The position numbers and the translations under genes were made by a program. Positions 982-37,012 of a stretch of 64,000 bases of DNA are shown here, piece after piece; the stretch's first letter is position 1; every line of letters starts with the position of its first letter. The notes below the pieces were generated by a model. The model saw nothing but the letters and a program-made list of their open reading frames with translations, did not search any database and was not told the origin of the DNA. The stretch is from Solirubrobacteraceae bacterium (GTDB taxonomy: Bacteria; Actinomycetota; Thermoleophilia; Solirubrobacterales; Solirubrobacteraceae), in NCBI GenBank assembly GCA_035487855.1, contig DATHLT010000005.1, positions 3,338 through 67,337 of the forward strand. Direction: 5' to 3'.

Positions 982-1554
982 CTAGGTCTCGCTGCGCCCC
1001 CGCGAGATGGCGATCTCGCCCGTGCGCATCATCTCGATCAGACCGAAGGGACGGACCATCGTCTCGAACGCCTCGATCTTCTCGGTGGTACCGGTCACCT
1101 CGATGATGATCGCGCGCTTGGTCACGTCGACGACCTTGCCGCGAAAGATCTCAGCGATCTGCATCAACTCGCCGCGTTGGACGCCGTCAGCGGTCACCTT
1201 GAACAGCGCGAGCTCACGCGAGACGGTGTCGGCCGGCTCGAGATCGCGGATCTTCAACACGTTGATGAGCTTGTGTAGCTGCTTGGTGACCTGGTCGATG
1301 GGATGTAGCGCTCCGTCCACAGTGAGCGTTACCCGCGAGACCTGTTCGTCCTCCGTGGGCCCGACGGTGAGGGTGTCGATGTTGAACCCGCGCCTGGCGA
1401 ACAGGCCGGCGATGCGCGTCAGCACACCGGACTTGTTTTCGACGAGGATCGACAGCACGTGCTTGCGGCCCGTGCGCATGCTGGTGGCAGCCTGCAACTC
1501 TTCGAGGCTCAGCGGCTCCTTGGTTCCTGGTTCACCCATAATTGCCCCCATCAC
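982..1554 (-). CDS. ilvN: Acetolactate synthase small regulatory subunit
   Basis: ACT motif LVENKSGVLTRIAGLFARRGFNIDTL; C-terminal IEMMRTGEIAISRG; overlaps the ilvB stop. Confidence 0.96.
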   Translation of the reverse strand: MMGAIMGEPGTKEPLSLEELQAATSMRTGRKHVLSILVENKSGVLTRIAGLFARRGFNIDTLTVGPTEDEQVSRVTLTVDGALHPIDQVTKQLHKLINVLKIRDLEPADTVSRELALFKVTADGVQRGELMQIAEIFRGKVVDVTKRAIIIEVTGTTEKIEAFETMVRPFGLIEMMRTGEIAISRGRSET

Positions 1555-3254
1555 CCCACCATCTCGCGCGCGGCCATGCCGGCGGGGATCATCGGGTAGG
1601 TGTTCTCCTCGCGCGTGACACGCACATCGACGAACACAGGACCCTCGGTGGCGATCGCGCGCTTCATGTCCTCCACCAGCGTGTTCTTGTCCTCGAAGCG
1701 CATGCCGGTAACGCCGTAGGCCTCCGCGAGCTTGACGAAGTCGGGGAACTCACCCATGTCCACCTGGCTGTATTTGCCGTCCCAGAACAGCTCCTGCCAC
1801 TGACGGACCATGCCGAGATAGCCGTTGTTCATGATGAACACCTTGATGGGAATCTTGTTCTGCGCGCATGTGGCAAGCTCCTGCGCGTTCATCTGCACGG
1901 AGCCATCGCCAGCGATGCAGCACACCAGCTGCTCGGGCATGCCGACTGCTGCGCCCATCGCGGCGGGCAGCCCGAAGCCCATCGTGCCGAGACCGCCGGA
2001 GTTGATCCACCGCCGCGGCGCGGGGAAGTCGTAGTGCTGTGCCGCCCACATCTGATGCTGGCCGACGTCGCTGGTGATGATCGCCTCGCCGCCGGTGGCC
2101 TCGTGTAGCGCTTTGACCATGAACTGCGGCTTGATCTCCGCGTCAGTGGTTTCCTCGAACGCGAGCGGGTACTTCGCTTTCCAGCCCTCGATCCGGCTCC
2201 ACCAGGCATCCAGCCGCGCCGGATCGGCGCCCAACGCGCGGTACTCGATCACGAGCTTGCTCAACACGTGCTTGGCGTCGCCCACGATTGGGATATGCGC
2301 GGGCACGTTCTTCGATATCTCCGCCGGGTCAACGTCGATGTGAATGAACTTCGCCCGCGGCGCGAACTCCGAGAGCTTGCCGGTGATGCGATCGTCAAAG
2401 CGCGCACCGACGGCGCAGATCAAATCGGCCTCATCCATCGCGTAGTTGGCAGACCGCGTGCCGTGCATGCCGAGCATTCCCAGCCACTGGCGATCGGGCT
2501 GCCACCCACCCTCTCCCTGTACCACCGCGGGAAAAGCGCCGAGTCCCATCAGCGTGCAGGTCACGGGGAAGCGATCGCTGCGCGCAAACTCCCGCAGCTC
2601 CTCGGAGGCGTTGGCGTTGACGACGCCGCCACCGGCGTAGATCACCGGCCGCTGCGCGGCTGCCAGCGCCTTCGCCGCCTGGCGCACCTGCTTTTGGTTG
2701 CCTTCCACGCGGGGCTGATAGCCGGGGAGCCGCACGTCGGTGACCGGCTCGTAGTCAATTTCCGCGCGCGAGAGATCGAGCGGGATGTCCACCAGCACAG
2801 GACCCGGGCGTCCGCTGCGGGCGATGTGAAACGCCTCGTGGATCGCACGCGGCAGCTCCTGCGGGTGCTGGATCATGACTGAGTGCTTGACCACCGGCAT
2901 CGTGATGCCGAGCGTGTCCGCCTCCTGAAAGCCGTCAGTACCGAGCAGGTCGGTGCGCACCTGGCCGGTGATGAACACCACCGGCACCGAGTCCATCATC
3001 GCGTCGCAGATCGGCGTCACCAGGTTGGTTGCACCGGGGCCGCTCGTGGCGAACGCCACCCCCACTTTGCCAGTGGCCTTGGCGTAGCCCTCGGCCGCAT
3101 GCCCGCCACCGGCCTCGTGCCTGACGAGGATGTGGCGAATACCGCCGGTGACGAGAGCGTCATATGTAGGAAGGTTGGCACCGCCGGGTAGACCGAAGAC
3201 GACGTCCACGCCCTCCGCCTTCAAACATTCCATCAACGCATCAACTGCGCGCAT
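1551..3254 (-). CDS. ilvB: Acetolactate synthase large subunit (ThDP-dependent)
   Basis: FGLPGGA, RHEAGGGHAAEGYA, TSGPGATN, GDGSVQMN ThDP motif, NNGYLGMVRQWQ; GGAGG RBS at 3261-3265. Confidence 0.97.
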   Translation of the reverse strand: MRAVDALMECLKAEGVDVVFGLPGGANLPTYDALVTGGIRHILVRHEAGGGHAAEGYAKATGKVGVAFATSGPGATNLVTPICDAMMDSVPVVFITGQVRTDLLGTDGFQEADTLGITMPVVKHSVMIQHPQELPRAIHEAFHIARSGRPGPVLVDIPLDLSRAEIDYEPVTDVRLPGYQPRVEGNQKQVRQAAKALAAAQRPVIYAGGGVVNANASEELREFARSDRFPVTCTLMGLGAFPAVVQGEGGWQPDRQWLGMLGMHGTRSANYAMDEADLICAVGARFDDRITGKLSEFAPRAKFIHIDVDPAEISKNVPAHIPIVGDAKHVLSKLVIEYRALGADPARLDAWWSRIEGWKAKYPLAFEETTDAEIKPQFMVKALHEATGGEAIITSDVGQHQMWAAQHYDFPAPRRWINSGGLGTMGFGLPAAMGAAVGMPEQLVCCIAGDGSVQMNAQELATCAQNKIPIKVFIMNNGYLGMVRQWQELFWDGKYSQVDMGEFPDFVKLAEAYGVTGMRFEDKNTLVEDMKRAIATEGPVFVDVRVTREENTYPMIPAGMAAREMVG

Positions 3255-3288
3255 TTGTCGCCTCCCTTCCTTGTATGTGATTGACGAA

Positions 3289-3331
3289 GAGGGGTCCAGC
3301 TGGTCGGCCTACGGCCGACTGCGTCACCCTC
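3289..3331 (-). repeat. 43-nt hairpin element, copy 1 (ilvB 5' leader)
   Basis: Sense GAGGGTGACGCAGTCGGCC-GTA-GGCCGACCAGCTGGACCCCTC; 7-bp inner stem and 5-bp outer stem; 36/43 identical to 36119-36161. Confidence 0.8.
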
Positions 3332-3346
3332 TAGGGGGAAAATCCC

Positions 3347-3370
3347 AGTGTACCAGCGGGTTTACACCCG
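3347..3370 (-). promoter_or_regulatory. Putative ilvB -10 box (TACACT) with upstream inverted repeat
   Basis: TACACT at 3352-3347 on the minus strand; CGGGT-N4-ACCCG palindrome at 3357-3370. Confidence 0.4.
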
Positions 3371-5145: not shown

Positions 5146-8082
<2,937 letters not shown>

Positions 8083-35548: not shown

Positions 35549-35908
35549 TCAGGCAGCCGACGCCTCGCGGGCGACCTCGGCAAAACGTCGGAACGCCTCT
35601 GCGTCGCGCACGGCGATGTCAGCGAGCACCTTGCGGTCGAGCTCGACACCGGCGAGTGATAGGCCGTGCATGAACTGCGAATAGCTCATGCCGTTGAGCC
35701 GTGCGGCCGCGTTGATGCGGGTGATCCACAGCTTGCGGAAGTCACGCTTGCGGTTGCGCCGGTCGCGATAGGCGTATTTGTCAGCCTTCAGCAGCGCCTC
35801 CTTGGCACGCCTGTAGTTCGAGTGCGCCTCGCCGCGGAAGCCCTTGGTCTGCTCGAGAACTGCGCGGCGCTTCTTGCGCGCGTTGACGGAGCGCTTGACC
35901 CTGGTCAC
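35549..35908 (-). CDS. rplT: 50S ribosomal protein L20
   Basis: [42 protein letters not shown]. Confidence 0.98.
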
Positions 35909-36105
35909 TTGCCCACCCCCAACATGCGCTTGACCCGTGGCACGTCATCCTGATGCAGGATCTTCGGGCCGCCGAGGGCGCGCTTCTTTTTGGGCGACTT
36001 CTTCTCGAGGATGTGGCTCGTGAAGGGGTGGCGTCCGCGCACCTTGCCGGTGCCGGTGACTTTGAAGCGCTTCTTCGCGCCGGAGTGTGTCTTCATCTTG
36101 GGCAT
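35905..36105 (-). CDS. rpmI: 50S ribosomal protein L35
   Basis: [21 protein letters not shown]...HILEKK. Confidence 0.98.
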
Positions 36106-36118
36106 AGGATCAAAGATC

Positions 36119-36161
36119 GAGGGACCCGGCTGGTCGACCTACGGTCGCCTGCGCCACCCTC
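36119..36161 (-). repeat. 43-nt hairpin element, copy 2 (rpmI 5' leader)
   Basis: Sense GAGGGTGGCGCAGGCGACC-GTA-GGTCGACCAGCCGGGTCCCTC; 36/43 identical to 3289-3331. Confidence 0.8.
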
Positions 36162-36172
36162 AAGGCACAGGA

Positions 36173-37012
36173 TTATGACACGGTGCTGCCCGCGGCCGCA
36201 GTTCCGCTGTTGCCGGCGGGTTCATCGACGGTCTCAGAGAGCTCTGGGGCGGCAGCTGTAAGCGACGGCTCGGCGTCCTCGACGGCGCCGGTATCAGCTG
36301 TCGGCTCGCCTGCCGGCGCGGCCTCAGTGGCGCTCGTGTCGCTAGCGACTGGAGTCTGGATCGCGGTGGAGGCGACGTCGCCAACGTGCGGGGCGTCGTG
36401 TGCGGCGGGTGCGGTGGACTCGCCGTCTGAGCCCTCGCCTGCAGCATCGACGCGGCCGGTGAGAACGGCTTTGGAGGGCGCCATCATCATCGTCATGTTG
36501 CGCCCTTCCTGCATGGGGCGCTGCTCGACGACGCCGATCTCAGAGAGTTCCTCTGCGAGCCGGTCGAGGATCGCGGTGCCGCGCTCGGGGTGGGTGACCT
36601 CACGGCCGCGGAACATGATCGTGACCTTGACCTTGTCCTTGTGCTTGAGGAAGCGCTCGACGTGGTGCTTCTTGGTGTCGTAGTCGTGCTCGGCGATCTT
36701 GGGGCGGAACTTGATCTCGCGGACGGTGATCTGCTGCTGGTGCTTACGTGCCTGCTTGATCTTCTGCGCCTGCTCGTACTTGTACTTGGAGTAGTCGAGC
36801 ACGCGGCATACCGGCGGACGCGCCTCGGGCGCAACCTCGACCAGGTCGAGATCGCGTTCTTGAGCGAAGACGAGGGCGTCGGCGGTCTTCAGCACGCCGA
36901 CCTGCTGTCCCTGGTCGTCGATCAGACGCACCTCGGGGACGCGAATACGCTCGTTAATCCTGGTCGTGTCCCGCTCAGGCGGGCGCCGGTCGAAGCGGCG
37001 AGGAACCGGCAC
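36173..37012 (-). CDS. infC: Translation initiation factor IF-3 with long acidic low-complexity C-tail
   Basis: RINERIRVPEVRLI, LDLVEVAP, VCRVLDYSKYKY, EIKFRPKI, FRGRE. Confidence 0.97.
   Translation of the reverse strand: MPVPRRFDRRPPERDTTRINERIRVPEVRLIDDQGQQVGVLKTADALVFAQERDLDLVEVAPEARPPVCRVLDYSKYKYEQAQKIKQARKHQQQITVREIKFRPKIAEHDYDTKKHHVERFLKHKDKVKVTIMFRGREVTHPERGTAILDRLAEELSEIGVVEQRPMQEGRNMTMMMAPSKAVLTGRVDAAGEGSDGESTAPAAHDAPHVGDVASTAIQTPVASDTSATEAAPAGEPTADTGAVEDAEPSLTAAAPELSETVDEPAGNSGTAAAGSTVS

Follow-up and report, generated by a model that had tools for sequence, protein, structure and literature searches.

The two similar hairpins found upstream of ilvB and rpmI in the window (the whole 64,000-nt stretch of Solirubrobacteraceae DNA analysed here) are probably copies of a dispersed repeat that is low in copy number and confined to one clade, behaving as a small non-autonomous element liable to insertion and deletion, much as MIRU, RPE or REP sequences do. 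The element occurs at about 20 unrelated sites and is absent from ilvB in half of the sampled lineages and from rpmI in all sampled relatives; the likeness between the two copies would therefore reflect membership of one family rather than co-regulation. It is a previously undescribed MIRU/RPE-like repeat of an uncultured but abundant clade of soil and peat actinobacteria, and a search of the literature on palindromic repeats in Solirubrobacter found no relevant description.

The two copies in the window

Copy A lies in the 5' untranslated region of ilvB and copy B in the intercistronic spacer between infC and rpmI, both on the minus strand (Table 1). Their sense sequences, GAGGGTGACGCAGTCGGCCGTAGGCCGACCAGCTGGACCCCTC for copy A and GAGGGTGGCGCAGGCGACCGTAGGTCGACCAGCCGGGTCCCTC for copy B, are identical at 36 of 43 positions and differ at seven, confirming what had been read from the letters. 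A degenerate consensus allowing up to three mismatches matches the window at these two places only, with 0 matches expected from 100 dinucleotide-preserving shuffles, and more than 70 further copies with the same consensus exist elsewhere. Chance similarity of two G+C-rich hairpins, for which nothing speaks except the high G+C content of the genome, can thus be dismissed. A covariance model, which the sequence-only reading had recommended building, was run over the window with filters off and recovers both copies (Table 1), the next match scoring 18 bits. This weak match, at 5284-5344(+) inside gatB and on the opposite strand (E ~0.007), was judged to be a chance G+C-rich hairpin. No further repeat families were found within the window, and ARAGORN detects no tRNA or tmRNA genes in its 64 kb.

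Table 1. Coordinates of the two repeat copies in the window and of the features next to them
Feature	Position	Strand	Remarks
ilvB, acetolactate synthase large subunit, downstream of copy A	1551..3254	-	Pfam TPP_enzyme_N/M/C
ilvB Shine-Dalgarno sequence GGAAGGGAGG	3261..3270	-	kept in relatives without the element
3' tail of copy A, TTCGTCAATCAC, fitting the family tail consensus TTCnTCrATCa	3277..3288	-	
Repeat copy A, 43-nt hairpin in the ilvB 5'UTR	3289..3331	-	covariance model 68.3 bits over 3275-3335
5' junction CCTA before copy A; over the sites, the 5' flank is most often (C)CTA	3332..3335	-	
TGGTACACT, extended -10-like motif of ilvB, independent of the repeat	3347..3355	-	conserved in every ilvB leader, whether or not it has the hairpin
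rpmI (L35), downstream of copy B	35905..36105	-	
3' tail of copy B, GATCTTTGATCCT, extending to the rpmI ATG	36106..36118	-	tail and hairpin both missing from the 16-nt spacers of relatives
Repeat copy B, 43-nt hairpin in the infC-rpmI intercistronic spacer	36119..36161	-	covariance model 72.9 bits over 36105-36165
infC (IF-3), TAA stop inside 'CATAAT'	36173..37012	-	

Both copies had been placed in 5' leaders, each behind a -10-like box. For copy A, which is 34 nt upstream of the ilvB ATG, the leader position holds, and its box TACACT (3352-3347), separated from the hairpin by 15 nt, is part of the conserved TGGTACACT, even if that motif does not depend on the repeat. Copy B, however, occupies a 67-nt spacer between two cistrons, and its supposed box CATAAT (36177-36172) includes the TAA stop codon of infC (36175-36173). 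A scan for canonical sigma-70 promoters calls none at either copy. The longer sequence AAACCCGCTGGTACACTGG (3347-3364(-)), which contains TGGTACACT, is conserved in front of ilvB in all Solirubrobacteraceae relatives examined, whether they carry the repeat or not; this region is probably the true ilvB promoter, though the simple sigma-70 scan makes no call there.

Both copies fold as hairpins of about -21 kcal/mol, with modest z-scores (-2.6 and -1.7). Sequestration of the Shine-Dalgarno sequence was considered and rejected: folds of the whole leaders are no more stable than those of shuffles (z = -0.45 and -0.65), and the rpmI leader favours an alternative fold. Rfam 15 returns nothing over the whole window at the gathering threshold and only spurious matches around both copies at E<=10, in agreement with the earlier impression that no known riboswitch is involved. 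A tail-like sequence is also present in two ilvB sites without the hairpin (L002 and L078), so that the tail of copy A may or may not belong to the insert at this locus.

Structure of the repeat unit

The unit is about 54-57 nt long and comprises a G+C-rich hairpin of 43 nt, capped by a C-GNA-G triloop, and behind it a tail of 11-14 nt rich in pyrimidines; (CC)TA usually precedes the unit. That hairpin and tail together form the unit follows from the tandem arrays, which are direct repeats with a period of 54-57 nt. The order is (CC)TA, GAGGGTGGCGCAGnCGGCCGnAGGCCGnCCAGCCGGGCCCCTC and then a TTCnTCGATCA-like tail, typically of about 12 nt and with the consensus TTCnTCrATCa, while the 5' flank is mostly (C)CTA. 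In the hairpin, the outer stem (GAGGG/CCCUC) is followed by a second stem (UGGC/GCCG) containing an invariant U.G pair, U6.G35. Internal loops (GCA in the 5' arm, CA in the 3' arm), together with a GGC bulge in the 3' arm, lead to an inner stem of 7 bp, which is closed by C-GNA-G.

The loop, at first thought invariant, is so between the two window copies, but over all copies it follows the pattern G-N-A, the middle base being free (T in 6, C in 12, G in 13 and A in 10 of 41 unique copies). GTAG occurs solely in the loop, when this base is T, that is in 6 of the 41. The compensatory change proposed for the inner stem is real at pair 17-25, which goes from G-C to A-U. Two other pairs differ as well: 14-28, a U-A pair in copy A, is broken to G.A in copy B, and 8-33, which is G-C in copy B, is A.C in copy A. 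Over the whole family, pair 14-28 covaries between C-G, U-A and G-C, and pair 17-25 between G-C and A-U.

Truncated and nested copies also exist. At four unrelated loci (L026, L039, L040 and L047) a full unit sits inside another unit, at the same internal point. The nested junction falls between ...GGCCGCCnA and CCGGGCCCCTC (L026:1700-1800, L039:2800-2950, L040:6820-6945 and L047:840-940). These composites suggest either a preference for self-targeting or a longer variant of the element. They were also considered as single, larger structured RNAs, an idea that was abandoned, their folds being not clearly beyond those of shuffles (z = -0.7 to -2.0).

Distribution across genomes

The IlvB proteins closest to that of the window are from named Solirubrobacteraceae/Solirubrobacterales MAGs. 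A loose pattern, in which the inner stem-loop was left free, was run over 185,579 species genomes and yielded 45 copies in 41 stretches; the 31 genomes that carry them all belong to uncultured Solirubrobacteraceae or Solirubrobacterales. Matches to the pattern are confined to three loci or fewer per species genome, including closed chromosomes of 2.9-4.7 Mb. The same pattern finds 29 stretches in JGI metagenomes, largely at sites already known from the genomes. The covariance model, made from the 45 copies, was applied to about 560 kb of flanking DNA and reveals almost no extra dispersed copies. With pattern matches in one clade only and so few additional copies in the flanks, the family is clade-restricted and low-copy. 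Dozens of randomly oriented copies and a match in Rfam, two outcomes that the sequence-only reading had singled out as telling against it, were looked for, and neither was found; its regulatory interpretation is rejected on evidence to which it had no access.

Genomic sites and orientation

About 20 recurrent sites were recognised, with flanking genes assigned by Pfam, and nearly all of them are inside transcription units. Sites in 5' untranslated regions precede ilvB, dnaK and the genes for a sigma-70 factor, a PstS-like binding protein, an IMPDH-family protein, an aldehyde dehydrogenase, an MBL hydrolase and a carbamoyltransferase. Intercistronic sites are those of infC-rpmI, threonine synthase-homoserine kinase (thrC-thrB), atpH-atpA, ylxR-infB and yebC-NTP-transferase; sites at gene 3' ends are found at pntB and an aminoacyl-tRNA synthetase gene. 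The upstream TAG stop codon overlaps the element at four sites, and at several intercistronic sites it is made from the TA of the element plus its first G. At least 12 genes have their start codon 13-38 nt downstream of the hairpin end. From one to three or more tandem units are present at the yebC-NTP-transferase and IMPDH-like sites. The orientation is sense at 17 of the 18 informative sites, and one copy lies antisense, downstream of a sulfite reductase gene.

At a further site, a convergent junction, metF is read antisense through the element, which thereby becomes a C-terminal extension. This extension of the metF product (MTHFR, L036:4583-5578(+)) is about 47 residues long, and its coding sequence overlaps the end of the convergent ORF; the 3' end of the gene looks as if it had been remodelled by insertion. 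Gene callers extend or mis-start ORFs across such units. In all six infB copies (L008, L029, L050, L057, L058 and L073), the AGG-GTG frame running through the element ends in a TGA overlapping the infB ATG (ATGA). The arrangement holds with spacers of 14 and of 17 nt, three of the copies have an ATG right at the 5' junction, and the frame may be a small coupling ORF. No consistent MIRU-style coupling frame through the element was found at ilvB, rpmI or thrB.

The hairpin, G+C-rich and followed by a UUCnUC tail, could be taken for an intrinsic terminator, an attenuator or an mRNA-stabilising module, acting as a leaky terminator or as a barrier to exonucleases between cistrons. Several copies that begin on the stop codon of the upstream gene (thrC, yebC and atpH), or sit at the 3' ends of pntB and the aminoacyl-tRNA synthetase gene, fit such a module. 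However, a terminator scan calls neither window copy, no T-run is present at either, and other copies are within essential ORFs or separate a gene from its promoter, positions at which termination would do harm. We therefore consider this reading very unlikely.

Presence and absence at ilvB and rpmI in relatives

The ilvB leaders of relatives were sampled through the IlvB protein, independently of the motif. The hairpin is present in the window, in L004, in L075 (with its inner stem disrupted) and in L077 (as a variant in which one pair has gone from C-G to U-A), and absent from L002, L003, L076 and L078-84. Four of the eight sampled lineages are without it, yet retain the promoter and the Shine-Dalgarno sequence. 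On the IlvB tree, presence of the hairpin is scattered over all clades, the element at ilvB having been lost or having decayed repeatedly. At the other locus, the infC-rpmI spacer of relatives, retrieved with three L35 proteins, is 16 nt long and free of the element in 28 of 28 places.

These empty 16-nt spacers (L085-L112, for instance L085:485-500) hold CGGCCGAAG or TCGGTCCGCGATC, which resemble the centre of the hairpin, CGGCCGAAGGCCG, plus the GATC of the tail; the resemblance may be due to chance, or mark a remnant or a preferred target.

Of its two interpretations, the sequence-only reading had preferred a cis-regulatory RNA by which the synthesis of branched-chain amino acids and the expression of ribosomal proteins would be linked. 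The absences described above, the association of the element with about 20 unrelated genes and its translation within gap and uppS leave this role without support. A tempting false lead, a riboswitch-like link between this pathway and the ribosomal proteins, is thereby removed.

In-frame insertions and copy-number change

At locus L031 the element is inside gap, and residues 40-60 of the encoded GAPDH (21 residues) have no counterpart in any GAPDH of the PDB. In uppS, near-identical strains carry 0, 1, 2 or about 3 units of 18 amino acids each. The UppS protein of 227 residues has none (...RRFKGE-TEEEF...), that of 245 has one (+18 residues, KRVAQAAEGRPAGPLxLxS), that of 263 has two (+36 residues) and that of about 280 has approximately three, the third being partly degenerate. 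P0241 (245 residues) and P0311 (227 residues) are identical everywhere outside the indel junction, and forms with one and with two units have about 98% identity once the extra unit is set aside. Some loci come from long-read MAGs with possible indel errors, an example being the broken uppS frame of L019.

Between near-identical strains the unit is thus gained or lost as a clean 54-nt indel; at the DNA level, 64 nt of the filled uppS allele take the place of 10 nt in its empty counterpart. Filled and empty alleles do not have the same codons at the junction (TAK...D versus KGE.T), indicating that the event was not a simple 54-nt insertion. The empty allele (L113:301-984, compared with L069) has AAGGGTGAGACC at the insertion point, with AGGGTG, the first bases of the element, already there. 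Copy-number polymorphisms of 54 nt, such as those of uppS, are possible strain markers in metagenomes, and the clean in-frame insertions in GAPDH and UppS are natural experiments on the tolerance of proteins to insertions.

Conservation and a possible role in the RNA

At fourfold-degenerate sites of ilvB, the genome of the window differs from the others by 34-45%, and over all pairs compared the range is 23-45%. For three pairs of ilvB copies obtained independently of the motif, the elements differ by 14-19% and the fourfold sites by 31-38%; the element thus changes at about half the rate of fourfold-degenerate sites, which leaves room for an effect on the mRNA. Most copies were gathered with a strict pattern, biasing the sample to conserved members and inflating apparent conservation. 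The unpaired positions 37, 38, 20 and 22 are conserved without having been forced by the search pattern. G.U pairs outnumber A.C pairs (14 versus 7), and the hairpin is thus maintained to a certain extent on the sense strand. The loop base is for the most part typical of the locus, with C at ilvB, A at uppS and infB and G at thrB, indicating vertical inheritance rather than recent transposition. As judged from these comparisons, the element is not neutral junk.

A host-level role of the RNA, as a stabiliser, as an insulator upstream of ribosome-binding sites or as a coupling device, is possible and is the main rival to the dispersed-repeat explanation. In its most explicit form, a trans-acting protein or RNA would bind the sense-strand hairpin just ahead of ribosome-binding sites and coordinate the translation or stability of about 20 housekeeping operons, among them those of ilvB, rpmI-rplT, infB, thrB, atpA, dnaK and a sigma factor. 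Such a multi-locus cis-acting RNA would account for the near-uniform sense orientation, for the hairpin ends 13-38 nt before start codons and for the reduced rate of change, as well as for the covariation at pairs 14-28 and 17-25, the C-G to U-A change in L077, the excess of G.U over A.C and the invariant U6.G35. Against these observations stand the in-frame translation of the element within uppS and gap, the variation from 0 to 3 copies among near-identical strains and the lack of the element in half of the sampled ilvB lineages and in all 28 sampled rpmI relatives. The antisense copy at the sulfite reductase gene, the copy read antisense by metF, the disrupted stem of L075 and host genes without obvious common physiology also speak against it, and we regard this form as improbable.

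We would likewise give a rather low chance to the element being a domesticated, strand-specific hairpin module with a dedicated trans-acting partner, either as a 'peel-and-paste' micro-transposon, whose 54-nt units would enter and leave seamlessly and even in frame inside essential genes, or as a clade-wide post-transcriptional operator just ahead of the ribosome-binding sites of about 20 housekeeping operons. Both forms would agree with a rate of change below that of synonymous sites, with the conservation of unpaired bases and with a sense orientation that is nearly absolute. If the sense bias and the conservation reflect a host function, the family would be a compact and tractable case of repeat domestication.

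Proposed mechanism of gain and loss

For the dispersed repeat that we favour, clean indels, a strand-specific C-GNA-G loop and a shared 5' CCTA suggest a mechanism based on hairpins in single-stranded DNA. Closed by a very stable C-GNA-G loop, the hairpin of the sense strand would form on single-stranded DNA and could drive duplication, deletion or insertion of the unit, through replication slippage or a putative HUH/RAYT-type enzyme. Once inserted, the unit would be co-transcribed and form a stable stem-loop, either 13-38 nt before a start codon or directly on the stop codon of the preceding gene. Its influence there on the stability of the mRNA or on translational coupling is probably slight and unspecific, and the unit may be tolerated or weakly favoured. 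Neither a transposase nor target-site duplications or terminal inverted repeats came to light for the element, so that it is solely from filled and empty sites that we infer mobility.

A more specific version of the dispersed-repeat explanation is an element of REP/REPIN type, or one derived from IS200/IS605, mobilised by a tyrosine HUH transposase (RAYT/TnpA). An enzyme of this kind, acting on hairpins in single-stranded DNA, would account for the seamless filled and empty sites and for the strand bias. The lack of target-site duplications at the clean indels fits such an origin, as do the sense-strand specificity of the C-GNA-G loop, the (C)CTA flank common to most sites and the copies nested at the same internal position at three or four unrelated loci. 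However, three or fewer strict copies per genome are far below the numbers in REP families, the tandem arrays are direct and contain no inverted doublets, and there is no conserved 5' GTAG. The 8-kb flanks hold no RAYT/TnpA gene, their sole transposase being of the IS630/DDE_3 type in L004 and unrelated to the ends of the element, and the junction bases of uppS differ between filled and empty alleles. We consider this version possible but unlikely.

Comparison with known repeats and leader RNAs

MIRU elements of Actinobacteria are about 40-100 bp long and occupy tens of loci, mostly spacers of polycistronic operons, where they are co-transcribed and vary in tandem number; they have filled and empty sites among relatives, overlap the ends of adjacent ORFs and have G+C-rich inverted repeats within the unit (Delihas 2011, PMC3184786). 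The present family is like them in organisation: a 54-57-nt unit with an internal G+C-rich inverted repeat at about 20 sites, mostly in 5' untranslated regions or between cistrons, in sense orientation, with a variable tandem number and with filled and empty sites among relatives. It differs in belonging to Thermoleophilia, in being dominated by a single strong 43-nt hairpin, in having fewer loci per genome and in occurring in frame inside enzymes. Tetranucleotide direct repeats, reported at filled MIRU sites, were not seen at the present element.

RPE are palindromic repeats that are located in frame in protein-coding genes and are translated (Delihas 2011, PMC3184786), as is the present element in gap and uppS. 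RPE, however, are about 105-146 bp long and belong to Rickettsia, whereas the unit described here has 54 nt, forms tandem arrays and is mostly found between genes. An interpretation as a CRISPR array was rejected, the 'spacers' being of 11-14 nt and identical within an array, compared with unique spacers of about 25-40 nt.

REP, BIME and REPIN sequences are present in hundreds of copies per genome, lie in both orientations and form inverted doublets; GTAG is conserved in them, and a RAYT gene goes with them. The element resembles them as a short, G+C-rich, imperfect palindrome in transcribed intergenic regions that sometimes abuts stop codons; it departs from them in copy number, in the absence of GTAG from its foot, in its sense orientation at nearly all informative sites and in forming direct arrays instead of inverted doublets. 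The earlier suggestion of a REP-like repeat is the closer one, but the element is no ordinary REP: it is low-copy, locked to the sense strand and arranged in direct tandem arrays, and it contains GTAG only when the loop base is T. With L20 leaders, ilvB leader-peptide attenuators, T-boxes and riboswitches, it shares the position upstream of rpmI or ilvB. Unlike these leader RNAs, it has no match in Rfam, is not specific to these genes and is dispensable in close relatives, and its host genes are heterogeneous rather than one coherent set.

Observations on neighbouring genes

In L004, an IS630-family (DDE_3) transposase gene (L004:260-1330) lies between a VIT1-like gene and the ilvB promoter and is absent from the other relatives; it was considered as a source of the repeat and rejected, being unrelated to the ends of the element. 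The IF-3 encoded upstream of copy B (279 residues) has a low-complexity C-terminal tail of about 100 residues past IF3_C, rich in Ala, Pro, Thr and acidic residues (36173-36480(-) in the window). The length and sequence of this tail differ widely in relatives, where gene calls range from 227 to 304 residues. Many L35 homologues of related bacteria have a basic C-terminal extension of about 20-25 residues that ends in ...GGDS, which is absent from the 66-residue L35 of the window.
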